Source of the DNA: Wickerhamiella versatilis
Taxonomy: Eukaryota
Direction of reading: 5' to 3'
DNA: 64,000 nucleotides
Assembly (NCBI GenBank): GCA_030867685.1
Contig: JAQOWU010000003.1
Span: forward strand, 682,001-746,000
Shown here: in pieces, positions 301 to 52,747 of the stretch
Layout of the letters: the number at the start of each line of letters is the position of its first letter
How positions within the stretch are numbered: the first letter of the stretch is position 1
Made by a program: the position numbers and the translations under genes
Notes under the pieces: model-generated
Seen by the model: only the letters and a program-made list of their open reading frames with translations
Told to the model about the DNA's origin: nothing
Databases searched by the model: none

Positions 301-1371
301 TTATAAAAGGTTTAAAATGAGAAGTGCGAGCAAAAGAAAGACGTTATAGTTATTCTGAGGTCCTTTATTAGACAATAAAGGGGCTTCACCGCCAAGGGAA
401 GTTGATAAAGAGGCTTGAGGATCTGGATAAGTACCATTCCCTTCGAAAAGGCTTGGAGTGGCAGATAGAGCTCCAGATCCATAATCTGCTTGTGAATGAT
501 TGGTGTTCAAGCTCTTAGAGCTACTAAATGTATTCGTAGTGTATGCGTCCTCTGCACTTTCACTGGGACTGGCAAGGCTTGTCTTCTCCGTTGTGGTTAT
601 GGTGGTGTCCGGTAAAGGGTATTCTGAAGATATGCTCGTGGCAGAAATAGCCTGAAGAACACTAGGATAAGTTGGTTGTGTGCTTGGAAAGGAAGTAATG
701 GATTCTAATGGCGAATCGGAAGTACTTCCTTCGTCAAATGCGGACTCACCTCCACTCAGATAGGGCACTGTGGTGGCGGTTTCAATAGCCTCACCACTAT
801 CAGTCAAATCACTATATGATGGGGAACTCTTTGCTGTGTTCGACGAGGATAAAGGGACCTGTGATTGCACCTCCGGTGATAAGGATGCTTGGCCTGTATA
901 AGTTGGTGCTGACGACCTGTCAGAGAAAGAGAAAGTAGAAATTAGAGAAGCAGATGTTGTAGAGGTCAAAGATGAATCGGAAGTTTGAAATGCTAGAGGC
1001 TGAGATGAGGATGGGTATGTTGGAAGTACACCACCACGGGGGTCACTTGCTAGTGATAAAGTACGGCTCTCAGAGACTGATGAGACAGGAAGCGTAGAAT
1101 CACTTAACGCTGTAGTAGCTGTGGCAGTAGCTGTGTTTTCATCTATGCCTTGAGCGGTAAGAAGTGATGCTGCTGCTGGGTTGATCGATGAAGCTGCTGC
1201 TAAAACTGACGGTAAAAGTCCTGCATCGGTGGCTGTTTCGTAAATTTCGAGGATACTCGAGAATGCTTGGTTCCCAAGAAGCTCACCAAGGACATCAGAT
1301 TCCACCATTGCAATAGCCTGAAGTGTTTAGTAGGGTAGTAGTATGATAATAATGTAAAAAATGTGGGTCAT
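301..1371 (-). pseudogene. Ser/Thr-rich putative GPI-anchored cell-wall protein; signal peptide interrupted by in-frame TAA (intact ORF 301..1308)
   Basis: 335-aa S/T-rich ORF with C-terminal hydrophobic tail (NVFLLLALLILNLL). An in-frame ATG at 1371 gives MTHIFYIIIILLPY*TLQAIA-MVES, with TAA at 1329-1327. TATAAAA on the minus strand at 1424-1418. Confidence 0.55.
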
Positions 1372-1885
1372 GTATATAAGTGAGATAAAGTTTGGTGATG
1401 CTTCTTAGTCTGAATAATTTTATAAGCTTTGACGTCACTGCATATATAGCGAGAAGGATTGTGGATTGTTGTGCACCATTCTGGTCCGCTTGCACATTAC
1501 ATACTTCACATCACAACTTGAGATGCGTTGGCATAGACAAATCTTCAATTGGAAAACCGAAGAATCTGAACAGACAAAGCTCGATGAAAGCAATAATATT
1601 ACAAAAATACAGTACATGTTCCACCTAATAAAAGAATTGCGCACATTATGCATTGCAATGTTTTCTAAGTCTGTATTATAATGATTTAAAGAGAATAATA
1701 AAGTGTTCCACTTCTGACATACATTTGATACTTGAAACGCACATACGCTTGTGATCACGAATTTCTGGAAAAGAATAAAATCTATTTTTTTTTCGTTTTA
1801 TAGTTGGATTACTCCTGGCCATTTCCAAAAAAATGTCAAATGACCCGGATTGGTAATCACACTCACCCAAAATTTAGTACTGCAC

Positions 1886-2647
1886 ATGGATAAAGCTGAG
1901 GATGAGATTGATCGAGCTCTCGCAAATTCATCGGATACTAGCTCTTCCTGGGAATCTTCTTCTGAAGAATCAGATTACATAGTAGAAGACTCTCGCATCA
2001 CTGAAGATGACGGCCAAAGTGAGCCTCCCCGAACTTTGCATGAGGTAACTGAAATACAAATACCAACGCTTCCTGAAAATTTCGAAATGACTGATCAGAC
2101 TGCAATCCAACCTATTGGTCATTTATTCAGTGCCTCTGACAACTTGCTGGTAATCCAAGCCAATAATTCCGGTCGATATAGAGTACTTGCGGACGGAACA
2201 ATTTTTTGTCTCGGCGACCGAACAGTGCTAGGAGTCCTATATGAAACATTTGGGCCTGTAGATCAACCTTTCTATGTTGTATTGCATGAAAAAACAGAGG
2301 AATTTGCTGCTAATGTAGGCAAAGAAGTATTTTTTGTAGTACCTGGATCGCATTATGAACTCACACAAACATTCCAGGTAAAAGGCAGTGATGCAAGTAA
2401 CTGGCATGATGAGGAGGTGGCGTTGGAAGACCAAGAATTTAGTGATGACGAGCAGGAAGCATTAGCCAAACGTAAGAAGAAAAAGCGCCCTCAGCATCAC
2501 TCTACAAAGCAAGAAGCTGCACCTTCTGCTCTACCACCTACCCCTACGAGTCTACCACATGAAGCTATGGCAAATGCTTGGATGCAATACGCACGATATT
2601 ATGAACAGATTCAAACCCAGCCACCACCACCTCCTCCTCCATACTGA
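1886..2647 (+). CDS. NAF1: H/ACA snoRNP assembly factor Naf1
   Basis: Gar1/Naf1 domain (LGVLYETFGPVDQPFYVV), KGSDASNWHDEEV..QEFSDDEQE motif and Pro-rich tail. First ATG is at 1886; the ORF track starts at a TTG. Confidence 0.9.
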   Translation: MDKAEDEIDRALANSSDTSSSWESSSEESDYIVEDSRITEDDGQSEPPRTLHEVTEIQIPTLPENFEMTDQTAIQPIGHLFSASDNLLVIQANNSGRYRVLADGTIFCLGDRTVLGVLYETFGPVDQPFYVVLHEKTEEFAANVGKEVFFVVPGSHYELTQTFQVKGSDASNWHDEEVALEDQEFSDDEQEALAKRKKKKRPQHHSTKQEAAPSALPPTPTSLPHEAMANAWMQYARYYEQIQTQPPPPPPPY

Positions 2648-2814
2648 AGGTTGATTGATTAATGAAAAGTCTATTACAATTTAAATCAAATTTAAATAAG
2701 ACGATGATATTTCACGTCTAACCTCTAATCTCATAATCGAGCTAAGCGAACATGAATCCTAGAGATGCATCAACTTGTAGTGTAGAGCATAGAATCCGCA
2801 CTAACAAGGTATAT

Positions 2815-4407
2815 TCAAAGCTTTGGTTGATCGTGCATAGCAGCTAATCTGAACTTCAGATCCTTCATGGTTTTTGATTTAGGTTTCCATCTTCGGAAGT
2901 TGTCATATAACTCGCGAATAAATGCGTCATCCTTCGAATGCGATACTAAAGCATGGACCGCCCAGGGTAAAACGTAAGGATTTTTGTCCGGAAGCTTGAA
3001 ATCATGATTTATTTTAAGATCGACATTCCGCACCCCTTGTGTTTCTAAACTGATAGACACGGCGAGACGATAAAGTAAATTTGAGCTGTATAGCTTTGAG
3101 TGGCCCTTTCCTGTTAAAGCACCACTTAAAGGACGGCTTAGCTCTGTAATAACGCTATGGTCAGGCTTCCCTGAATTACACTGACGCAAGGCAAGATCGA
3201 CGAGAGAGGCGACGAAGTCAGATTCCATATCCTCATCGAAATATACAGCCCGGAATATATTTGGATGGGATACATGCATGCACAATGCACTGTACAATGG
3301 GACAAGTTGATCATCTGCGCTCCCTATCAGTATGAGCCGCGTGCCAGATTTAAGTATGCAAGACATTGCCTTTAGGAACTTTTGAGACTGTTCGCTAGCA
3401 ATGTTCTGGAGTTGAAAGAGCTCGAAAAGTGAATCATGTTCAATTCGAGTAATTGCTCTGCCAAACAGGGTGGAATCCATTCCTGGCATGGGTCCAAGAC
3501 ATGTCCCTGCCATACCAAGTATAGCAGTCTTTTGGGATTTAGATATAACTTCCTCACACAAAAGGCGCTCCAAAATTCGTGTAGCAACAACGGTTCCCTG
3601 GGAATGTACAGCAAAAATTATAAAATCAGCCTCAGAGAGCAACTGCGACCAATTTAAGAGGAGATCATATAATGTTTTCACCCGATGGTCTATTTTTCCT
3701 TCTCCTTCAAGCGCAATCTTTTCCACTGTCACATTTGTAAGGTTTTGTTCTGCACACCATGTCTCTACTGCCATGGCCGCCTCGTTGGCAAACCGAATTG
3801 AGGTTCCTGTCGGCTCACCGAGAATTTTTCGCGTCATTCTAGCAGGGAAGTATCCGTGAACTCCAATTATTACGATTTTGTGGACATGATGGGGTGTGGA
3901 CCTCCTTAGTCCCCTAGAAGTATACCACAAACGGTGAATCAGGGAGGGTTGCTGCTCTAGGGACTCAAAATCAGGGACAATCCGGGAATTCTTGCACAAT
4001 TGGTTGTTCGAGCACTCATCTCGCGCTATATGTTTGTTGGATGTATTACTACCAGGAATAGAGCTCTCAGCGGATTGGTGCCCATCATCCAATCCCCTCG
4101 AGCGCCAAGCCCAATTCCAGCGCGACTGCTTAAATACTTGATCCTCCAACTTAGGTTGCTTCTCTAGTTCAACACCTCCAACAAATTTCCTTAGTGAATC
4201 CGCAGAGCTTTCCATGGTCCTTCCTGCTACAACTGAAGTGGTGCCACTGGTGATAGGTGACGCAGCGGATGAGCCAGCTGAGCGCAAACCAGCATCGCAC
4301 TTACTCGTACCTAAAGCAATTGCAGGCATCGAAGCTGCATGGCGAACTTTGCGAGGACGTTCAATTTCATCTTCATTCGAACGTCGTCGTCGATACCAGC
4401 CAAGCAT
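2815..4407 (-). CDS. YML020W-like alpha/beta-hydrolase-fold protein
   Basis: KIVIIGVHGYFP..LGEPTGTS.RFA, HSQG nucleophile-like motif and DQLVPLYSA, typical of the fungal YML020W family. Confidence 0.75.
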   Translation of the reverse strand: MLGWYRRRRSNEDEIERPRKVRHAASMPAIALGTSKCDAGLRSAGSSAASPITSGTTSVVAGRTMESSADSLRKFVGGVELEKQPKLEDQVFKQSRWNWAWRSRGLDDGHQSAESSIPGSNTSNKHIARDECSNNQLCKNSRIVPDFESLEQQPSLIHRLWYTSRGLRRSTPHHVHKIVIIGVHGYFPARMTRKILGEPTGTSIRFANEAAMAVETWCAEQNLTNVTVEKIALEGEGKIDHRVKTLYDLLLNWSQLLSEADFIIFAVHSQGTVVATRILERLLCEEVISKSQKTAILGMAGTCLGPMPGMDSTLFGRAITRIEHDSLFELFQLQNIASEQSQKFLKAMSCILKSGTRLILIGSADDQLVPLYSALCMHVSHPNIFRAVYFDEDMESDFVASLVDLALRQCNSGKPDHSVITELSRPLSGALTGKGHSKLYSSNLLYRLAVSISLETQGVRNVDLKINHDFKLPDKNPYVLPWAVHALVSHSKDDAFIRELYDNFRRWKPKSKTMKDLKFRLAAMHDQPKL

Positions 4408-6691: not shown

Positions 6692-6891
6692 TCTATTATA
6701 TGCTTACCATTCCTGTAGTATCATGCCACATGTTATAATAACTTCATAGGCTGAAAGCTCTATCTCTGTGTAAGATCACATAGATTAATCCAGTAATAAT
6801 TACAGCAATAATATATGGCTCACATTGCCATCCCAAATCTTAAGAATGACATTTGGTTTAAAACCGTAGCTTAGCGCACGAAGATTACGTG

Positions 6892-7824
6892 ATGGATAAT
6901 GGAGAGAACTATACCAGGGAGAAGAAAGTCGGTGAAGGTACATACGCGGTGGTATTTGTCGGTAAACAGATAACGACACAAAAAAGAATTGCGATAAAGT
7001 CCATTAAAGTTGGAGAATTCAAAGATGGACTCGATATGAGTGCTATCCGTGAAATCAAGTTTCTTCAAGAGATGAGACATGTCAACGTCATTGAGCTACT
7101 AGATGTTTTTGAAAGCGACAAAAGTTTGAACCTCGTTTTAGAATATTTGCCTGCGGACTTGGAGCAAATTATCAAAGATCAATCGCTTTTGTTTAGCGAA
7201 GCCGACATGAAGAGCTGGCTTTTAATGATGACAAGGGGTGTTCACCATTGTCACCGTAATTATATTCTGCACCGTGACTTGAAACCCAGTAATATGTTAC
7301 TTGCGCCTGACGGCCGTCTAAAAATTGCAGATTTTGGCCTGGGAAGGGCCATGGCATTTTCGCCTGCGGAGAGATTTACGTCAACCGTGGTCACACGCTG
7401 GTACAGAGCTCCTGAACTACTAATGGGAGCACGCCACTATACGGGGGCAATAGACATCTGGTCTTTGGGAATCATATTTGCGGAATTAATGTTGCGAATT
7501 CCTTACCTTGCTGGTCAGTCTGATATTGACCAGTTGGATATCACCTTTAAAGCATTAGGTACTCCAACAACGGCTAGCTGGCCCAATGTGGATTCTTTAC
7601 CTGGATATAAGACTGCAGCTAAGATCCGGCATCCTCCACCATCCAGACAAACGTTACAGGCAATCTTTTCTGCCGCCTCTGACTCCGCCCTCGACCTGTT
7701 GTGTTCTATGATTGCTTTAGATCCATTAAAAAGAGTTGATGCATCACAGGCACTGCTATCTCCCTATTTTCGTAATTTACCAGCTCCTACAAGGCCTGAG
7801 GAGTTGCCACGTAGGTCTCATTGA
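6892..7824 (+). CDS. KIN28: TFIIH CDK7-family kinase Kin28
   Basis: GEGTYAVV, KDGLDMSAIREIKFLQE, HRDLKPSN, DFG and T-loop FTSTVVTRWYRAPELL. Confidence 0.95.
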   Translation: MDNGENYTREKKVGEGTYAVVFVGKQITTQKRIAIKSIKVGEFKDGLDMSAIREIKFLQEMRHVNVIELLDVFESDKSLNLVLEYLPADLEQIIKDQSLLFSEADMKSWLLMMTRGVHHCHRNYILHRDLKPSNMLLAPDGRLKIADFGLGRAMAFSPAERFTSTVVTRWYRAPELLMGARHYTGAIDIWSLGIIFAELMLRIPYLAGQSDIDQLDITFKALGTPTTASWPNVDSLPGYKTAAKIRHPPPSRQTLQAIFSAASDSALDLLCSMIALDPLKRVDASQALLSPYFRNLPAPTRPEELPRRSH

Positions 7825-7948
7825 AAGGTTTCTTTTGAAAAAGAGAGATATCAATCGAATATGAATTTGAACTAAAGGTGTTATGTGACTATTAATGCAG
7901 TTGATGCCTGTCCAATAAATATGTCTTCACAAGGTGATGACAAAAGTC

Positions 7949-8155
7949 GCGGGGCAGTTTTTCAATAAATACTTCTTTGCCAGAGATCTTTTGTAGGTAA
8001 CTATTAGAGAATGGGATAAGCTTAATATATTCATCGAGTTTAAGGCTAGCAGTGCTTTTTCTGCAGAGACGATGATCGGGGAACCCCGGCCATAGGCTTA
8101 CCCAAACCCGCCTCTCCCCGCATTCGGAGATTCCTACATACCTATATATATATAA
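7949..8155 (+). promoter_or_regulatory. Promoter of the SDR gene: SYGGRG (Mig1/CreA-like) boxes, CGGGG-AA-CCCCG inverted repeat, TATA run
   Basis: GCGGGG 7949-7954, CGGGGAACCCCG 8077-8088, CCCCGC 8116-8121, TATATATATATAA about 8143-8155. Confidence 0.45.
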
Positions 8156-8206
8156 TATATTAACGTTTCCCGTTGAACATAAAAACATATTTCTCAAAAA
8201 TTTCAG

Positions 8207-8992
8207 ATGTCCTTGGCTAATAAAGTTGCTCTCATCACCGGAGGTGTAACTGGAATTGGCTGGTCATCAGCGAGGCGTTTGGCAGCTGCTGGTACACAAA
8301 CTGTAATTAGTGGTATCCAGCCTGAGCTGGAAGTAAAACATAAGCTCGAAGAATTAGAAAGGTTGTCGAAAAAGCCCGCGCTATATATCCCAGGTGACTT
8401 AACTGAGGAAGATAACTGTAGAACACTCGTGAAAGGTGTCGTAAAGGAATTCGGACGTCTGGATATTATACATGGAAATGCAGGTCTTCAATACGTCAAT
8501 CCCTTAGATACTTATCCTACAAGTATTTGGAACAAGATGGTCGCTTTGAACTTGACAGCCAATTTTCATATAATGAAAGAAGCTTTTCCAATAATGAAAC
8601 AAAATGGGTTTGGAAGATTTATAGCGACATGCTCTATTCATTCTGTTGGCGGTGCAAAGTTCAAGGGTCCTTACACTGCCACAAAGCATGGTCTCTTGGG
8701 TCTCGTAAGGGCTGCAGCTCTGGAATATGCCGGAACCGGCATTACAGTAAATGCTGTATCTCCAGGATATGTGTGGACGGATCTGATGGAAAAACAAATC
8801 CCTGATACGATGAGAGCTCGCAATATGTCTCGAGAGGAAGTCATAAATGACGTATTACTTGGAGGCCATCCATCAAAGCAATTCATAGAAGGTGATCAAG
8901 TGGCCGCCATTGTGGAGTTCCTATGCGGCGACTCAGCTTCACAAGTAAATGGGGTGAACTATAATGTAGATGGTGGCTATCTTGCCCAGTAA
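8207..8992 (+). CDS. bdhA: D-3-hydroxybutyrate dehydrogenase, bacterial BdhA-type SDR (HGT candidate)
   Basis: TGGVTGIG, NAGLQ, S-I-H, K-x2-YTATKHG, PGYVWTDLMEKQIPDT, DVLL..HPSKQF and terminal DGGYLAQ all match bacterial HBDH signatures. Confidence 0.85.
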   Translation: MSLANKVALITGGVTGIGWSSARRLAAAGTQTVISGIQPELEVKHKLEELERLSKKPALYIPGDLTEEDNCRTLVKGVVKEFGRLDIIHGNAGLQYVNPLDTYPTSIWNKMVALNLTANFHIMKEAFPIMKQNGFGRFIATCSIHSVGGAKFKGPYTATKHGLLGLVRAAALEYAGTGITVNAVSPGYVWTDLMEKQIPDTMRARNMSREEVINDVLLGGHPSKQFIEGDQVAAIVEFLCGDSASQVNGVNYNVDGGYLAQ

Positions 8993-9151
8993 ATATTCTG
9001 CCATGCCCGTACTACTGGCCACTACTGATTCTCAAATATCTGACGACCATGAGGGACCATTATGGAAAGACCTAGTATGTATTTTTAGGCTAGGGTTAAA
9101 ATATCCTATAGAGAGCAATTTTAAACAAAGCTAGCGAATCTTTTCAACAAT

Positions 9152-12100
9152 CTAAAGCTTCAACCGGCCAAACTCTTCTATGACGGAATTGAGACCCTGG
9201 ATTTCAGCATTGTAGGCTTCGATACGCTTGGAATTTGCCTCACGGACAGCTTCCTTGACCTTTTGTTCATAGCCTGGGACCTTAGTTTGCTTGATCGCAT
9301 TGTCACGAAGCTGCTCGGCCTTAGTTAGCTTCTTGTTTGCCTTGGCAATTTCGTCATCTAGATTCACATGGCCTTTAACCATCAAGAATACTCGGCAATC
9401 GGGGCTTACTGTCCCCACAACTGACCCAGGTGGCGTAGTAGCATCTTCTGTTATATCGAGAGTATTTGCGGCACGAACAAGACTTATTATCATGTCCTTT
9501 TGGTTGTGCATCACAGCCAACGCATTATTCTCTGCAGAAACAATCAAATGAGCTCCTTTATTGATGGAATAATCTGCCAATAGGGATCTCGCTTGCTTAA
9601 CAGCACCTAAGACAAGGTTGTACTCCTGCTCTGCATTGGGATTAAAGAACTCTGGTTCGGGGAACTGAGCGACAGATACCGATGGGACATTGGCATCGCT
9701 GGCGCGACGAGGAATCCGCTGCCACAGTTCTTCCGTGATGTACGGCATGAAAGGAGCTAGAAGCTTCATGCCGCCCTCAATCGCGGTATATAGAGTGTTA
9801 CGTGCACTCACTTGCTCCTCAGGGGTACCCTCGAGGATCAAAAACTTTGAATTCTCGATATAAACGTCACAGAGCTCATACAACCAGTAGCTGTATGCGG
9901 CCGATGCAGCCTCAGAGAATTGGCGGTTGTCAAGGTGTTCAGCAACGGCACGTGAGGCCACAGAATATTTGTGCAGAATCCATTTCTCCACTAGTGACTC
10001 ATTGCCACCTAAGGCCTCTTTCTCAGGTGGAACATAGTTTTCTCCGAGTCTCATGAGAACAAACTTTGTGGCCTGGTAAATCTTGTTGCAGAACTTTCGA
10101 TAGCCCTCGATGCGGCCTACATCCAAGTTAATATCTCGGCCTCCTGTAGTGTATGCACACATCGCGAAACGCAATGCATCAGTGCCACACTGAGGAACTC
10201 CATTCGGGTAACTAAGACGTTGTCCCTCGGCTGCTTTAGCCACCTCACGAGGATCAAGGTTACCAAGCTTTAGCTTGTCATGCAAGCCCTCAAGACTTAT
10301 GCCATTAATAACGTCCAGTGGGTCAACAACATTTCCAAGTGACTTCGACATCTTTCTACCCTGAGCATCACGTACGAGAGCATGACAGAATACCTCCTTG
10401 AATGGAATTTCTCCGACAAGTTTGATTCCAAGCATTATCATGCGGGCAACCCAGAAAAATAAAATATCCCAGCCTGTTTCCAGTAGATTCATGGGATAGA
10501 AGTCCTTCATATCTTTGGAAGAGATATCAGGCCATCCCAATGTTGAAAAAGGCCAAAGACCGGAAGAGAACCAAGTATCAAGAACGTCTTCATCTTGACT
10601 GATTTGAACCTCCTTACCAGGGAACTTTTCCTGGGCTTTCGCAAGGGCTTCATCGTAGCTTCGTCCGGCGACCCAGTTTTCTGTTAGACTAGGGTTGGGC
10701 GATGGTTGGCCAACAACTTCAACCAGATACACTGGGCATCTATGACCCCACCAAAGTTGTCGTGAGATGCACCAATCTTGAATATTGCTCATCCAGTGCT
10801 CGAACTCATGCTGAGACGACTTAGGAGTGACTGTGATCTCCCCAGTCCGCACAGCCTTCAAAGCTTGCTCCGCTTGAGGCTTCTGTGCTACCCACCACTG
10901 CGGTTTTAACAATGGCTCAATGACGTCGCCACTCTTGGCACACGTTGGGATACTCATAGGATTCTCTTTCTGATCAATATAGAGACCGTTAGCCTTAAGA
11001 TCTTCTATGACCTTAGCACGGGCATCAAAGCGCTTCATACCCTTGTATGGGCCACAATTCTCGTTAAGCGTACCATCCTCATTCAAGATAGAGATGAGGG
11101 GCAGATTATGGCGTTTACCTGTCTCATAATCGTTAGGATCATGTGCTGGCGTGATCTTCACTGCACCAGTACCAAATTCCATGTCAACTGCTTCCGCGTC
11201 TGTTATTACTGGCACCTCATGCCCTTCAAGCAGGGGATGAAGAAGGGTCTTTCCGTGAAGATGTTTGTATCGCGAGTCATCAGGATGAACGGCAACTGCA
11301 GTATCACCGAAGAGAGTTTCTGGTCGAGTTGTAGCAATGACGACCTTCTCCCCAGTGTCCTTAGCCACATATGCCATGGAAGTCAAAACACCGAACTCGA
11401 CGGGATTGTCATATCCAGGCACATTAAGTTTCGTTCTCCCAGGGATCTCCTTCTGTTCCAACTCTAAATTGCTGAGAGTAGTGCGAAGAGCAGTACACCA
11501 GTTCACAAGCCTCTCTGCACGATATATAGTGCCGTCATCGAATAGCCTGACGAAGGCTTCAGTTACAGCACGAGATCTGGGGTCATCCATGGTAAAAACC
11601 TCACGGCTCCAATCATATGATGCACCCAACGATTCGAGTTGTTTTCTAATTCGCTCATGGTATTCCTCCTTCCAATCCCAAACAATATCCAAGAATTTCT
11701 CACGTCCATAATCGTGGCGCGTAGTCCGCGTACGTGTCCAGAGCATCTTTTCCACCACACTTTGTGTACTAATACCGGCGTGATCAAACCCAGGCAAGAA
11801 AAGGGTAGTCTTACCTGCCATTCGATTGAACCGTATAAGAGTATCCTGGAGTGATATAGTCAATGCATGTCCAATATGGAGAGCTCCTGTGATATTTGGG
11901 GGTGGGGCTGGAATCACAAAACGACCTTTTGGCAGAAAGTTTCCATCATTATCAAATTTGGGTGCAAAGAACCCTTGCTTCTTCCACCATTCATACCAAG
12001 AAGACTCAACAATTTTAGGATTGTAAGCCTTTAATGCAGGATCATCCAGTGAGTGTAGAATCTTCTTTTCACCAGGTACTGTCTCATCCTTGAATTCAGG

Positions 12101-12262
12101 AATGGGTTCCTTCTTAGACTCCTGCTTCGGCTTCTTGTTACCTGATTGTTGTGGCTGCTGTTGCTGTTTCGCCTGCTTAGCTTGAAACTTTGCAAGTTTC
12201 TCGGCCTTTTTCTTCTCCTTCTCGATCTCTTTCGCAGTCTTAGGGCGTGCCTCACTCGACAT
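9152..12262 (-). CDS. VAS1: Valyl-tRNA synthetase (cytosolic ATG at 12262; probable non-AUG mitochondrial extension upstream)
   Basis: PPPNITGALHIGHAL (HIGH), RKMSKSLGN (KMSKS), DWCISRQLWWGH and editing-domain ATTRPET. Confidence 0.97.
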   Translation of the reverse strand: MSSEARPKTAKEIEKEKKKAEKLAKFQAKQAKQQQQPQQSGNKKPKQESKKEPIPEFKDETVPGEKKILHSLDDPALKAYNPKIVESSWYEWWKKQGFFAPKFDNDGNFLPKGRFVIPAPPPNITGALHIGHALTISLQDTLIRFNRMAGKTTLFLPGFDHAGISTQSVVEKMLWTRTRTTRHDYGREKFLDIVWDWKEEYHERIRKQLESLGASYDWSREVFTMDDPRSRAVTEAFVRLFDDGTIYRAERLVNWCTALRTTLSNLELEQKEIPGRTKLNVPGYDNPVEFGVLTSMAYVAKDTGEKVVIATTRPETLFGDTAVAVHPDDSRYKHLHGKTLLHPLLEGHEVPVITDAEAVDMEFGTGAVKITPAHDPNDYETGKRHNLPLISILNEDGTLNENCGPYKGMKRFDARAKVIEDLKANGLYIDQKENPMSIPTCAKSGDVIEPLLKPQWWVAQKPQAEQALKAVRTGEITVTPKSSQHEFEHWMSNIQDWCISRQLWWGHRCPVYLVEVVGQPSPNPSLTENWVAGRSYDEALAKAQEKFPGKEVQISQDEDVLDTWFSSGLWPFSTLGWPDISSKDMKDFYPMNLLETGWDILFFWVARMIMLGIKLVGEIPFKEVFCHALVRDAQGRKMSKSLGNVVDPLDVINGISLEGLHDKLKLGNLDPREVAKAAEGQRLSYPNGVPQCGTDALRFAMCAYTTGGRDINLDVGRIEGYRKFCNKIYQATKFVLMRLGENYVPPEKEALGGNESLVEKWILHKYSVASRAVAEHLDNRQFSEAASAAYSYWLYELCDVYIENSKFLILEGTPEEQVSARNTLYTAIEGGMKLLAPFMPYITEELWQRIPRRASDANVPSVSVAQFPEPEFFNPNAEQEYNLVLGAVKQARSLLADYSINKGAHLIVSAENNALAVMHNQKDMIISLVRAANTLDITEDATTPPGSVVGTVSPDCRVFLMVKGHVNLDDEIAKANKKLTKAEQLRDNAIKQTKVPGYEQKVKEAVREANSKRIEAYNAEIQGLNSVIEEFGRLKL

Positions 12263-38216: not shown

Positions 38217-39035
38217 ATGAATGATAAATGGCTGGTAGGAGAAGACACCGCCCAAGTCTTAGAAGATGAAGTATCATCTCTAAGAAATTCTGGGGGTACA
38301 CAATCCCCTGGTAAAGTCCCTGGGCGGTGGAGCTATCCGGTAAAATCTGCTAGTCGTCCATCATTAGTGAAGCCACCCAAGCGTGTTCCACGCAGAGCCT
38401 TTTCACTGGCAGATAAAGACCCTTTCGTTGACTCTAACCCAAGCAAACGCCCAAAGATTGATGAAACTGGTCGAATTAAGGCAGATACGCAGCTTCTTCG
38501 TACCCTCCAGTCAGCCAAGCGCAGACTCGACTCACCGTTTTCTACCATTAGCCTTCACAATTCTTTCGAACCTGCGGCAGAAGAAAACTCATCTGTAATT
38601 GATTCGCATGGACATGCGAGCTCAGCATACCAGGAAAATGACGTTCGTGTCGGCCCTGCGTCTGGGTCTTCGCCTGATAAAACGAACATCACACCGACCC
38701 CTGCACCTGCAAATAATGATATCGAAGCTTTATTAAAAGGTGTTGATATTCTGAGCAAGAATCTTGCGGAATTTCGAGCAGAAATAATGGCTTGGCCCCA
38801 GAAGTTACAAGATCCTCAGCAGCACTATAAGGAATACTTCAATCAATTATCCTCCGAACTTCATGCTAAATATGAGGAACGTACTAAAAAAGACATTCAA
38901 AAGTCTGAAATTATGATTAAAGAGAATTACGCAAAAAAAATTGCCGCTTTGAACGCGGCATTAAAACAGGAACAGCAGGAAAAGAAAGAGCTAATCAAAG
39001 CTTGCGACGCTTTTTTGACGGCGCGGGGCCGCTAG
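38217..39035 (+). CDS. Hypothetical protein with disordered SP-rich N-terminus and C-terminal coiled coil (possibly TACC/Slk19-like)
   Basis: 272 codons from ATG 38217, with a C-terminal heptad region ending EKKELIKACDAFL. Confidence 0.65.
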   Translation: MNDKWLVGEDTAQVLEDEVSSLRNSGGTQSPGKVPGRWSYPVKSASRPSLVKPPKRVPRRAFSLADKDPFVDSNPSKRPKIDETGRIKADTQLLRTLQSAKRRLDSPFSTISLHNSFEPAAEENSSVIDSHGHASSAYQENDVRVGPASGSSPDKTNITPTPAPANNDIEALLKGVDILSKNLAEFRAEIMAWPQKLQDPQQHYKEYFNQLSSELHAKYEERTKKDIQKSEIMIKENYAKKIAALNAALKQEQQEKKELIKACDAFLTARGR

Positions 39036-48416: not shown

Positions 48417-49250
48417 ATGCGCTTCCTGACGGACGCAATAGTCTTGGCAGTCGCTGCCGCTGAAATTGGCCTGAGTGTGCATTCTTCCATTGAGGAATTA
48501 TCAGAAAAGCCTGTACGTATTGTCGATGGCACTTTGGTCGTCGGTGGAGAATTTGGACCCATACTTCAAGCAAACTTTGTAAATGGATCTATGATTTTAA
48601 GCGATCGGGTGGTTTCGCAGTCCGCTTTCGGTGCTGGCATCAGCGTGAACCAGGATGACGGAATGCTCTCTATTGCGTACAAGCCAAGCCAAGGTTTTTT
48701 CGACCGCAATGGCTGGCTCGAGTTTGATGGAATGGCGCTTTTTGGAGTGAAAAATGATACCAATGGGTGGCACTTATACGCTAACAGGCCAGATCTGCAG
48801 GATGAAGAGCCTGTACTACTACAGTTAGCAGCACTAGTATATCCCGGCAGTACTATGCATGAAATCCAATCCTTTGCTAACACGACAGCCAGTACCCAAT
48901 TAGCCACCACTGAGGCTTATGGTGATGACGGCCGTGTACCTGTTACATCACCGGCTAGCTCTCAACTTCAAAAAGCGATAACATCCCGACAAATCGCTAC
49001 ACCCATATCCTCAAAAGAAGGGCACTGGGTTGCAAAGGAAATAACTACCCGCGAGCATGCCACCCCAATTTCATCGAAGGAGGGTCGCGTCGCAGCAAGT
49101 GCGAGTGGTGGCCTGAACCAGACTTCATCATCGCAAACGAGTCCTAGCAAATACGTTTATTCCGGAGGGTCTGTCGTCAAATCACCTGGAGATGTTAAAG
49201 CTACATTTAAATTCTCAGCTGCTCACTTCGCCCGCCAGAGGCAACAGTGA
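48417..49250 (+). CDS. Secreted/cell-wall protein with short internal repeat
   Basis: Signal peptide MRFLTDAIVLAVAAA, Gly-rich beta region, S/T-rich second half and duplicated IT.R..ATPISSKEG. Confidence 0.65.
   Translation: MRFLTDAIVLAVAAAEIGLSVHSSIEELSEKPVRIVDGTLVVGGEFGPILQANFVNGSMILSDRVVSQSAFGAGISVNQDDGMLSIAYKPSQGFFDRNGWLEFDGMALFGVKNDTNGWHLYANRPDLQDEEPVLLQLAALVYPGSTMHEIQSFANTTASTQLATTEAYGDDGRVPVTSPASSQLQKAITSRQIATPISSKEGHWVAKEITTREHATPISSKEGRVAASASGGLNQTSSSQTSPSKYVYSGGSVVKSPGDVKATFKFSAAHFARQRQQ
48978..49088 (+). repeat. Two diverged coding repeats with 63-nt period
   Basis: ITSRQIATPISSKEGH at 48978 and ITTREHATPISSKEGR at 49041, with many synonymous differences. Confidence 0.7.
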
Positions 49251-49840: not shown

Positions 49841-50177
49841 GTAAGTTATTGAACCAGAATCGACGACGATTTGCAAACAGGTGAGCTGAGGTCGGAATCC
49901 GGTGAGAAAATCATATTTTCTCGGGCAGATTGTATTGCTTAATGGCTATCTGCTTTAAGGGTGATGTCTCTTTTCTAGGTTAAGTCCACAAACTGCATCT
50001 TCCTTCTCTTTTGCTATACTTGCCTTGTTGTCGTGACAAGAGCGACAACAACGCAAGGTGTTGATACCATAATCTACCCTAACCTTTCCGGCTTTCGGCC
50101 GACATCTCCACCTATTCAGCCCAATCAGACGCCGTCCCTTTCTGAATCATTGTGAACAGCGAACTAACAAATGGCAG
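49841..50177 (+). other. Spliceosomal intron (337 nt)
   Basis: Donor GTAAGT at 49841, branch point ACTAAC at 50163-50168 and acceptor CAG at 50175-50177. The phase-1 junction restores the IDP frame. Confidence 0.8.
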
Positions 50178-51415
50178 CATCTACAAAGATTCAAGTGAAG
50201 AATCCCATCGTTGACCTCGATGGTGATGAAATGACTAGAATTATTTGGAAGAGTATCAAGGATAATCTGATTTTTCCCTACCTTGATATTGACCTCAAGT
50301 ATTACGACCTCGGCATTGAATATCGTGACCAAACAAACGATCAGGTCACTATCGATGCTGCCGAGGCAATCAAGAAATACCAGGTGGGCGTGAAATGTGC
50401 CACGATCACCCCAGACGAAGCTCGTGTGGAGGAGTTCAAATTGAAGAAGATGTGGTTGTCCCCCAACGGTACTATCAGAAATATTTTGGGTGGAACAGTC
50501 TTCCGTGAGCCCATCGTTATCGACAACATCCCTCGTCTTGTACCGGGATGGAAGAAACCTATTATCATTGGCCGTCATGCTCACGGTGATCAGTACAAGG
50601 CAACTGACATCGTCGTGCCTGGCGCCGGAAAGCTCGAGCTTGTCTACACACCTAAGGATGGTGGCGAGACTCAGCGCTATGATGTTTATGATTATAAGGG
50701 CCCAGGTGTTGGTATGGCTATGTACAATACCGATGAATCTATCACCGGGTTCGCCCACTCCAGTTTCAAGGTTGCTCTTAACAAGAAGCTGCCTCTGTAC
50801 ATGAGCACCAAGAATACCATCCTTAAGCGTTATGACGGTCGTTTCAAGGATATTTTCCAGGATCTGTACGAGAAGTACTACAAGGAAGACTTCGAGAAGG
50901 CTGGTATTTGGTACGAGCACCGTCTTATTGACGACATGGTGGCTCAGATGATCAAATCACAAGGTGGCTTTGTCGTAGCAATGAAGAACTATGACGGTGA
51001 TGTTCAGTCAGATATCGTTGCCCAGGGCTTTGGCTCACTTGGTCTGATGACTTCGGTTCTCCTCACTCCCGATGGAAAGACGTTTGAGAGCGAGGCTGCA
51101 CACGGTACAGTTACCCGTCACTACCGCCAGTGGCAGAAGGGCAACGAGACTTCCACGAACTCTATCGCGTCTATCTTTGCCTGGACTCGTGGTCTCATTC
51201 AGCGTGGTAAGTTGGATGGCACCCCAGAAGTTTCTATTTTCGGCGAGGCTTTGGAGAAGGCAGTAATTGACACTGTCGTTGTTGACGGCAAAATGACCAA
51301 GGACCTTGCTCTTGCTCGGGGTGAAACTGCTCGTAGCTCCTACGTCCTCACTGAGGAGTTCATCGGCAACGTTAAGGAACGTCTTGACAAGAACCTCAAG
51401 GCAGCCAACCTGTAA
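50171..51415 (+). CDS. IDP1: NADP-dependent isocitrate dehydrogenase (short isoform / exon 2)
   Basis: [47 protein letters not shown] and [10 protein letters not shown]. Ends in -ANL. Confidence 0.97.
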
Positions 51416-51715: not shown

Positions 51716-52747
51716 ATGGCCACAGGAGAAGAGAATGCCTTAGAGGAGCTTGAGATAGAGGACACTCCTCCGCAAGAATCAAGGCTACATCGGATTCTCA
51801 CCCCGGGGGTCCAATTATATCTTGCAGCCATGTTCTGTGGGTCAGCGATGAAGGCCATATCAAAATTATTAGTTGAAGAGGTGAACAATTACCAATTAAT
51901 CTGTATGCGTATGGCACTAACTGGAGCAACGGCCTTGATTTACATGTGGTATAAATCTATACCTCACTATTTTTGGGGACCTCCGGGTACACGGTTATTA
52001 TTATTGTGCCGTGCTGTGATGGGGTTCTTAAACATAGCGCTGGTTTATTACCAAATTCAATATCTTTCCCTTCCAAACTCCGCAATTATCCAGTTTCTCT
52101 CGCCCCTCGTAACCTGTGTCGCAGCGAGGATCCTCTTGAAGGAGCCATATTATTGGCAGCAAGCACTTGCGTCAGTCGTTAGTTTTATGGGAGTCCTAGT
52201 GATCGCCCGTCCACAGTGGCTATTTGGAGGGTATTCGAATGAAGATCAAATGACAAGCGATTCAATTCACCGTATGTGGGCAGTGATGGCAGGATTGGGT
52301 AATGTGGCATGTTCAGCGGGCATAATGATAGTCCTACGGATAATTGGTGACAGAATCCACCCATTAGCCAGCGTTAGCTCTTATGCAGTTGCCGCTACAA
52401 GCTTATCTTTTATTTATCTTATATTTCGCCTGGGGGACGTGGCACTACCAAAGTCTCCAAGAACCTGGGCTCTAATCGTGGTAAGTGGTTTCTCTGGATT
52501 TTTTTTGCAATTCATGAGCTCTCGTGCTGTTCAATTGGAGAAAGCGACTGTGCTATCACCCCTCAGATACACCCAGCTAATTTATGCCACGATATGGGAA
52601 TTCTTAATTTGGCACGACCTCCCGGATATATTCTCACTGATTGGAATGGTTTTTGTTCTTGCAGGGGTCATTTATGCCGCCCAGTATAAAGCGGTAAAAC
52701 AAGAAAAACCCCTAAGTGGGGATGAACACTCTCAGAATAGACAATAG
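51716..52747 (+). CDS. EamA/DMT-family membrane transporter (YPL264C/YMR253C-like)
   Basis: About 10 hydrophobic segments and motifs WGPPGTRLLLLCR, ILLKEP, GVLVIARP.WLFG, QLEKA and YTQL. Confidence 0.85.
   Translation: MATGEENALEELEIEDTPPQESRLHRILTPGVQLYLAAMFCGSAMKAISKLLVEEVNNYQLICMRMALTGATALIYMWYKSIPHYFWGPPGTRLLLLCRAVMGFLNIALVYYQIQYLSLPNSAIIQFLSPLVTCVAARILLKEPYYWQQALASVVSFMGVLVIARPQWLFGGYSNEDQMTSDSIHRMWAVMAGLGNVACSAGIMIVLRIIGDRIHPLASVSSYAVAATSLSFIYLIFRLGDVALPKSPRTWALIVVSGFSGFFLQFMSSRAVQLEKATVLSPLRYTQLIYATIWEFLIWHDLPDIFSLIGMVFVLAGVIYAAQYKAVKQEKPLSGDEHSQNRQ

Follow-up and report, generated by a model that had tools for sequence, protein, structure and literature searches.

We analysed a stretch of 64,000 nucleotides (hereafter the window) of contig JAQOWU010000003.1 (positions 682,001 to 746,000, assembly GCA_030867685.1) of the yeast Wickerhamiella versatilis, in which an open reading frame (ORF) for a classical short-chain dehydrogenase/reductase (SDR) lies between two native yeast genes, those for a KIN28-like kinase and a VAS1-like valyl-tRNA synthetase (Table 1). 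The predicted protein resembles the bacterial 3-hydroxybutyrate dehydrogenase BdhA. A preliminary description of this DNA had proposed that the gene was acquired horizontally from a bacterium, and we consider it probable that it is a bdhA xenolog of bacterial origin, domesticated in a group of yeasts from the Wickerhamiella/Starmerella clade (W/S clade).

A bdhA-like gene between KIN28 and VAS1

The arrangement first described, an intronless SDR of 261 amino acids (aa) between KIN28 and VAS1, was borne out by the ORF itself, by the profile matches of both flanking genes and by unspliced RNA reads. The closest named relative of the KIN28-like protein is KIN28 of Wickerhamiella sorbophila (72%). 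Relatives of the VAS1-like protein were found first at 99% and 88% and then at no more than 69%; the named ones are yeast valine-tRNA ligases/VAS1 at 60-66%, with Blastobotrys, Sugiyamaella, Geotrichum and Trichomonascus at 64-66%. Judged from these flanking proteins, the host is a member of the W/S clade, its KIN28 being closest to that of W. sorbophila.

The gene is integrated in the yeast chromosome. The stretch 7300-9900 of the window was found complete in 13 sequencing runs, and whole or in part in 20 of the 24 runs listed, from 12 studies; the runs that contain it are mainly food-fermentation metagenomes. In a run labelled with the organism (X18), positions 6800-10400 are unbroken on a record of 127,627 bp, and the 40 single-base differences and one 1-base gap relative to the window indicate that it stems from another strain, in which the genes are arranged in the same way. 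This second strain lacks one A at window position 8991 (TAAA becomes TAA + T), with the stop codon kept and the protein unchanged.

The gene is also fully ameliorated to yeast composition. Its GC content is 0.438 and its GC content at third codon positions (GC3) is 0.368, compared to 0.413 +/- 0.050 for the 37 other large ORFs of the window, and by synonymous-codon score it is placed 25 of 37. In the four bacterial relatives that were measured, GC3 is 0.80-0.94 and the fit to yeast codon usage is far poorer. We give almost no credence to a chimeric assembly or to contamination by bacterial DNA, in favour of which we saw no sign: GC content and codon usage are those of yeast, the bacterial matches do not exceed 50% identity, RNA reads of a run labelled with the organism cover the gene, and the same junctions recur in the runs of 12 studies and on the record of the second strain. 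A check of continuity across the locus thus excludes a chimera, and contamination is ruled out with it.

Expression was examined in a single sample with two raw RNA runs, of 3427 and 3319 reads. Over the ORF, the mean depth was 5.1 and 7.2, compared to 85-94 over KIN28 and about 330 over VAS1, the xenolog transcript amounting to 5-9% of KIN28 and 1.5-2.2% of VAS1 in the sampled condition. The 3' untranslated region (UTR) of KIN28 extends to about 7951-8009, with RNA molecule ends at 7951. Depth then falls to about 0.3 at 8010-8130 and climbs again from 8131, so that the xenolog transcript is no read-through from KIN28, and it is 9-11 at 8978-9098, in the region of the 3' spacer. No splice joints were reported over the stretch to which the RNA reads were aligned, which includes the ORF. 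The xenolog is thus a separate intronless transcription unit, and a TA-rich, TATA-like run 46-64 bp 5' of its ATG may be part of its own promoter. A scan for bacterial sigma-70 promoters gave three sites against a shuffle mean of 3.8, that is, no excess; no intrinsic-terminator-like site was found in the 3' spacer, and a tRNA scan of the window returned 0 genes, hence no tRNA-linked insertion mark. The short antisense ORF located between these two genes, KIN28 and the xenolog, is probably spurious, since RNA depth there follows the tail of the KIN28 3' UTR to about 8009 and is close to zero past it.

Table 1. The bdhA-like gene, its surroundings and further ORFs, in positions of the window
Feature	Position	Strand	Remarks
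BdhA-like classical SDR, coding sequence	8207..8992	+	261 aa + TAA; single ATG start, intact, intronless
Upstream region, putative own promoter	8010..8206	+	TA-rich TATA-like run at ~8143-8161; promoter function predicted
3' intergenic spacer	8993..9151	.	159 bp, from the sequence; common to the convergent VAS1-like gene
KIN28-like CDK7 kinase, left flank	6892..7824	+	native yeast gene; Pfam Pkinase 228 bits
VAS1-like valyl-tRNA synthetase, right flank	9152..12262	-	native yeast gene; class I tRNA synthetase, tRNA-synt_1 511 bits
Antisense ORF in KIN28-xenolog spacer	7892..8188	-	98 aa; probably spurious
Isocitrate/isopropylmalate dehydrogenase-family ORF	50171..51415	+	top GC3 of the window, 0.556
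EamA-family transporter ORF	51716..52747	+	adjoins the preceding ORF
ORF without Pfam match (E <= 0.001)	301..1308	-	one of four such ORFs (272-530 aa)
ORF without Pfam match (E <= 0.001)	2815..4407	-	as above
ORF without Pfam match (E <= 0.001)	38217..39035	+	as above
ORF without Pfam match (E <= 0.001)	48417..49250	+	as above

Family, active-site residues and fold

By its sequence, the protein belongs to the bacterial-type BdhA family. Its best matches in NCBIfam are three models of 3-hydroxybutyrate dehydrogenase (NF009093, TIGR01963 and NF009931). It scores 265.8 bits on NF009093, over the cut-off of 258; E-values on the NCBIfam models of this enzyme are 1.8e-83 and 3.3e-79, and the next families score at least about 45 bits lower. 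On NF009931 it reaches 201.3 bits, under the cut-off of 340. In Pfam it matches adh_short (158.6 bits) and adh_short_C2 (159.5 bits). The best 11 matches of a sequence search in PDB are all hydroxybutyrate dehydrogenases, headed by 3v2h (E 2.1e-67), and the 261 aa align end to end with bacterial BdhA (EC 1.1.1.30; 3v2h of Sinorhizobium meliloti, 1wmb of Pseudomonas fragi, 6zzq of Acinetobacter baumannii).

The motifs quoted in the preliminary description as hallmarks of proteobacterial BdhA are all present in the translation, and the membership in the bacterial family holds. The cofactor loop TGGVTGIG occupies residues 11-18 and the NNAG motif takes the form GNAG, N90G being common to all yeasts; the other motifs are NAGLQ (91-95), S143-I-H145, K153-GP-Y156-TAT-K160-HG, PGYVWTDLMEKQIPDTMRARNMSREEVINDVLL (186-217) and a C-terminal DGGYLAQ. 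The signature PGYVWT..EKQIPDTM..INDVLL is shared with the alphaproteobacterial BdhA subfamily. In an alignment of 27 rows (5 yeast and 22 bacterial sequences), Q95, S143, H145, K153, Y156, K160 and Q197 are invariant in 27/27, and N115 is nearly so; query residues 3-260 align with residues 2-259 of 1wmb, with an offset of 1. We take Q95, H145, K153 and Q197 to be the counterparts of the carboxylate-binding residues Q94, H144, K152 and Q196 of the P. fragi enzyme, and N115, S143, Y156 and K160 presumably correspond to its catalytic tetrad Asn-Ser-Tyr-Lys. The retention of the substrate-binding Gln, His, Lys and Gln, which had been noticed before in the single sequence, is thus confirmed across the alignment.

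An AlphaFold (AF2) model built from the same 27 rows has a mean predicted local distance difference test (pLDDT) score of 87.9 and a predicted template modelling (pTM) score of 0.88. Its strands and helices alternate as in Rossmann-type folds, and the sole segment with a pLDDT below 50 is 146-151. The top ranks of a Foldseek search with this model are all hydroxybutyrate dehydrogenase (HBDH) structures (1wmb, 9c5k/9c5h, 2ztv, 6zzq, 2q2w; template modelling (TM) scores 0.83-0.87, with 0.86-0.87 for 1wmb, 9c5k and 6zzq; E about 1e-25). The likeness to bacterial BdhA covers the Asn-Ser-Tyr-Lys tetrad, the Gln/His/Lys/Gln carboxylate set and the fold (TM 0.87). However, the yeast protein is no more than 50% identical to that of any bacterium, and several motifs differ: the bacterial TGSTSGIG is TGGVTGIG in yeast, NNAG is HGNAG, the C-terminal DGGWTA is DGGYLAQ, and TASAHS..ASPFKSAY is replaced by TCSIHSVGGAKFKGPY.

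The protein starts straight at the first Rossmann strand, without an N-terminal presequence, and ends in -LAQ, which does not resemble the tripeptide of the peroxisomal targeting signal type 1 (PTS1); from both features, the cytosol is its most likely localisation. The Gly-rich loop (GGVTG) has no basic residue, which points to NAD(H) rather than NADP(H) as the cofactor. Another eukaryote with an HBDH of the bacterial SDR type is Trypanosoma cruzi (9c5h and related entries; E 3.5e-51, TM 0.86-0.87), whose enzyme, according to the entry titles, was crystallised with NADPH, in contrast to what the yeast loop would suggest. Mammalian BDH1 (mitochondrial, lecithin-dependent) and BDH2 carry out the same reaction as is proposed for the yeast protein; they belong to other SDR subfamilies than bacterial BdhA. 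Unlike them, the yeast protein has neither a presequence nor a membrane anchor, and bacterial-type enzymes make up all of its best matches. BDH1 is classified as EC 1.1.1.30 (PMC2572057).

Relatives and origin of the gene

We searched for relatives of the protein in a collection of 5.8 billion proteins and inspected the best 120 of 1715 matches. After the query come two yeast-like clusters, P0002 (79% identity) and P0003 (74%; its variant P0122 occurs on 20 contigs), and then 117 rows at 44-50%. Including that of the query, only three yeast-like clusters at identities of at least 74% were thus found among these matches. Ten of the 117 rows carry organism names, all bacterial, nine from Alphaproteobacteria and one from Pirellulales (Chakrabartia, Beijerinckiaceae, Enterovirga twice, Methylobacterium, Methylobacteriaceae, Phreatobacter twice, Sphingomonas morindae, Pirellulales). 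There is no fungal name among the best 120, although the collection includes yeast and other fungal proteomes, and no match from W. sorbophila, although its proteome is in the collection; dozens of yeast relatives of VAS1 and KIN28, W. sorbophila among them, come from the same collection. A HMMER search of 1.84 billion representatives of 50% clusters gave a top non-self match at merely 41% identity, and the five clusters shown by the ESM Atlas are all bacterial 3-hydroxybutyrate dehydrogenases.

A scan of prokaryotes with one genome per species detected 586 relatives, the best 80 of which have 39-49% identity and are, by title, almost all from Alphaproteobacteria. The exceptions by title among these 80 are Frankia sp. 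RB7, Rhodanobacter, a "beta proteobacterium", Obscuribacterales and Micavibrio. The BdhA of "Frankia" sp. RB7 is near-identical to that of Bradyrhizobium cosmicum (tip branches of 0.019 and 0.006 in the tree described below), which suggests contamination of the assembly or a very recent transfer. The top locus is from Sphingomonas sp. PR090111-T3T-6A (49% identity), where the bdhA-like gene (3001..3783) directly follows a gene for a 735-aa patatin-like phospholipase/DUF3734 protein (762..2969). The window has the dehydrogenase only, without this partner, and the yeast gene stands alone with yeast codon usage.

A metagenome scan for the locus of sister yeasts gave best 80 loci at no more than 47% identity, none of them close and yeast-like. 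A contig of 180,675 bp is the longest both for P0002 and for P0273, the 88% homologue of VAS1, which suggests, without proving it, that the two genes are linked in a sister species. Whole chromosomes aside, this was the only such coincidence when the database relatives were compared, and in other yeasts KIN28 and VAS1 were not seen together on any short contig. Among 20 cluster representatives checked, few of which carried names, no fungal BdhA-like protein was named, and the only eukaryotes were the euglenid Petalomonas cantuscygni and the bdelloid rotifer Didymodactylos carnosus (P0145, P0149). The euglenid protein has 314 aa with an N-terminal extension and the rotifer protein 415 aa; both species are eukaryotes known or suspected to carry bacterial genes.

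For the phylogenetic analysis, ORFs were translated from 77 of the 80 loci, three having been missed by the filter. The tree comprised 59 loci (all of L081-L120 and every second of the rest), 5 yeast sequences, the 10 best unnamed matches and 16 cluster representatives, two very long-branched rows having been dropped after a first quick tree, and it was computed with IQ-TREE under LG+C20+F+G4 with posterior mean site frequencies (PMSF) on 90 rows and 261 columns. The yeast sequences form a clade with support 100/100, nested with support 99/99 in a set of 32 rows that contains all 18 Sphingomonadales rows. The tree includes a euglenid representative but no trypanosomatid sequence; the euglenid is placed away from the yeasts.

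A number of our results weigh against the reading of a domesticated bacterial bdhA gene, and the first of them concern this tree. The sister group of the yeasts is Sphingomonas sp. PR090111-T3T-6A with weak support (68/89), and the yeast stem measures 1.99 substitutions per site, compared to a median tip branch of 0.27, which makes the attachment point inherently uncertain. Approximately unbiased (AU) tests did not reject any of three alternatives: a clade formed by the 27 bacterial rows of the Sphingomonadales-type set alone (p 0.419), a position of the yeasts outside a clade of all 78 ingroup bacterial rows (delta lnL 28.1, p 0.107), and the yeasts and the euglenid as one clade (delta lnL 35.7, p 0.087). 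For the first two alternatives, the groups were chosen after the tree was seen. Finally, the tree contains no fungal BdhA-like sequence. The phylogenetic check proposed along with the preliminary description therefore gave a mixed outcome: the nesting of the yeasts among bacterial BdhA was recovered, while the alternative topologies were not rejected and the comparison with fungal SDRs was not part of the tree.

These last points bear on a fungal origin, either as a vertically inherited fungal SDR clade or by acquisition from a member of Pezizomycotina with a BdhA-like gene. The AU result for the yeasts outside the sampled alphaproteobacterial group (not rejected, p 0.107) is compatible with it, as is the composition of the tree, and Pezizomycotina are known as donors to W/S yeasts, according to PMC13376923. 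However, despite the fungal proteomes in the database, the best 120 matches show no fungal name, not even W. sorbophila; in these matches and in the HMMER search, the three yeast-like clusters are the only ones of their kind above 50% identity; and in the best tree the yeasts fall within Sphingomonadales with high support, whereas long-branch attraction would draw them to the long outgroup rows and not to a short-branched clade. We thus find a fungal origin improbable. Horizontal acquisition from bacteria, as originally proposed, is the best-supported reading, from the family, the residues, the bacterial nearest relatives and the nesting in the tree: a bacterial origin is well supported, an alphaproteobacterial donor is likely, and a donor from Sphingomonadales is tentative.

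Divergence, possible function and significance

The remaining results on the opposing side concern the protein itself. Its score on TIGR01963 (279.7 bits) is under the cut-off of 307.05, and on NF009093 the two BdhA copies of the Sphingomonas genome score well over the yeast protein (324 bits for the copy next to the patatin-like gene, 364 for the second BdhA). There are 30 columns in the alignment where 90% or more of the 22 bacterial sequences have a residue in common that none of the five yeast sequences shares; in most of these columns the yeasts all have the same new residue, and many adjoin catalytic residues. The replacements include S13G, T14V and L19W in the cofactor loop and N90G in NNAG; A142C, A144I, A149G, P151K, A155P, V157T/C and A159T around S143, H145, K153, Y156 and K160; P192D/E in the substrate loop; Q221H/Y/F; and, at the C-terminus, W258Y and T259L. 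When the window is compared with strain X18, 5 of the 9 single-nucleotide polymorphisms (SNPs) in the xenolog are nonsynonymous (H45P, R52S, P62S, I122L and V250A, at window positions 8340, 8362, 8390, 8570 and 8955), compared to 0/7 in KIN28 (6918-7596) and 0/11 in the part of VAS1 compared (9248-9911), that is, 0/18 in the flanks (Fisher p 0.0016).

This excess of amino acid changes, together with a transcript of only 1.5-2.2% of VAS1 and a third allele (P0121) whose protein is 97.7% identical to that of the window, a difference of 2.3%, could indicate a relic, still intact but drifting towards a pseudogene. We consider this very improbable. In all five yeast sequences, which represent about three lineages at 74-79% identity, the frame is intact and every catalytic residue is kept; the ratio of nonsynonymous to synonymous polymorphism (pN/pS) of the xenolog, from two strains, is about 0.38 and not about 1; and none of the five changes relative to X18 hits a catalytic or binding residue. 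Synonymous diversity is 0.022 per synonymous site in the xenolog and 0.033-0.039 in the flanks, thus comparable or slightly lower in the xenolog. We therefore reject a pseudogene, and the pattern indicates that selection on the protein is relaxed compared to the housekeeping neighbours, yet purifying.

For a domesticated bacterial gene, we propose the following scenario. One bdhA gene, for a classical SDR of EC 1.1.1.30, would have passed long ago from a bacterium, most likely an alphaproteobacterium close to Sphingomonadales, to the ancestor of a small group of W/S-clade yeasts. There it would have become a normal chromosomal gene among housekeeping genes, with yeast codon usage and its own small transcription unit producing little transcript. 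In the predicted enzyme, the carboxylate of a 3-hydroxy or 3-oxo acid would be held by Q95, H145, K153 and Q197, and the reaction would follow the standard Ser/Tyr/Lys mechanism. The protein is thus probably a cytosolic enzyme that would convert (R)-3-hydroxybutyrate + NAD+ to acetoacetate + NADH and back, or else use a closely similar 3-hydroxy acid. We moderately favour a cytosolic NAD(H)-dependent SDR for which the (R)-3-hydroxybutyrate/acetoacetate interconversion is the most likely activity, with less assurance than we have in the bacterial origin.

It is also possible, though we think it rather unlikely, that the gene has the same bacterial origin and the enzyme was neofunctionalised after the transfer by a burst of active-site substitutions, so that it would now use another 3-hydroxy/3-oxo acid or serve mainly in the reductive direction, as an acetoacetate reductase or redox sink and not in the catabolism of 3-hydroxybutyrate. 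The preliminary description had already suggested that substitutions close to the active site may alter specificity, and the replaced columns agree with this. The long yeast stem would fit such a change, as would the replaced columns, among them 142, 144, 149, 151, 155, 157 and 159 and those at P192, Q221 and W258/T259, the low confidence of the AF2 model exactly at 146-151, and the score under the TIGR01963 cut-off. However, the protein retains the catalytic tetrad and all four residues that bind the carboxylate, conservative exchanges predominate among the replacements (A>C, A>G, I>V, W>F/Y), and the stem could equally reflect age or fast evolution of the clade, whose VAS1 shares just 60-69% identity with the VAS1 of other yeasts. 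In the same vein, and as a doubtful extension of it, the remodelled active site might equip these yeasts of food fermentations with a reaction that is novel among budding yeasts. If so, the enzyme could reduce acetoacetate or a similar 3-oxo acid and thereby serve as a sink for NADH in the cytosol, or supply (R)-3-hydroxy acids, in high-solute fermentation, a role other than the classical catabolism of 3-hydroxybutyrate derived from polyhydroxybutyrate (PHB).

The reading of a domesticated bacterial gene fits what is known of the clade. Bacterial xenologs reported in W/S yeasts include ADH1, SUC2, the enterobactin operon and genes for the salvage of thiamine (PMC5897096, PMC9044934, PMC11043216 and PMC13376923). 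PMC13376923 counts close to 600 xenologs in three W/S species, 335 of them in W. versatilis, none with a donor match above 70% identity and with expression below that of native genes, and its Fig. 3B maps the butanoate pathway with xenologs intertwined with native genes. The bdhA-like gene is similar to the xenologs so described in encoding a metabolic "interconversion" enzyme, in the age of the transfer (less than 70% identity to any donor) and in its low expression. It differs in that its neighbours are highly expressed housekeeping genes, its surroundings not evidently being an AT-rich, terminal "End" domain. The remainder of the window consists of ordinary yeast housekeeping genes, among them those for an ISW-type remodeller, a glutathione peroxidase, Utp12, Rai1, Prp9, a DEAD-box helicase, Sda1, Brf1, an actin-family protein, an AspRS-type synthetase, ALAD, Snf7 and ribosomal protein L2. 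The window also contains the EamA-family transporter ORF with its dehydrogenase-family neighbour and the four ORFs without Pfam match listed in Table 1.

The word "hydroxybutyrate" is absent from the main text of PMC13376923 and PMC5897096, whose supplementary gene lists may already include the gene. "Hydroxybutyrate dehydrogenase" was not found in the inspected papers with W/S or Saccharomycotina terms, a search for fungal 3-hydroxybutyrate dehydrogenase gave no match about a fungal enzyme, and a search combining 3-hydroxybutyrate dehydrogenase, horizontal gene transfer and yeast gave nothing relevant by titles and abstract openings. We thus regard the gene as a probable bacterial xenolog of the W/S clade that is new or, failing that, undescribed in the text of these papers. 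It is a fairly ordinary example, and no surprise to specialists of the clade, since W/S yeasts are already known for hundreds of bacterial xenologs.

The locus adds one more well-documented case: a xenolog that is intact, ameliorated, transcribed and conserved over about three lineages. It may bring chemistry of the ketone-body type (3-hydroxybutyrate/acetoacetate), which budding yeasts normally lack, and it touches the butanoate pathway mapped in PMC13376923. With its weak expression and relaxed constraint between strong housekeeping genes, it offers a test case for the proposed retention and adaptation of xenologs in low-expression domains.

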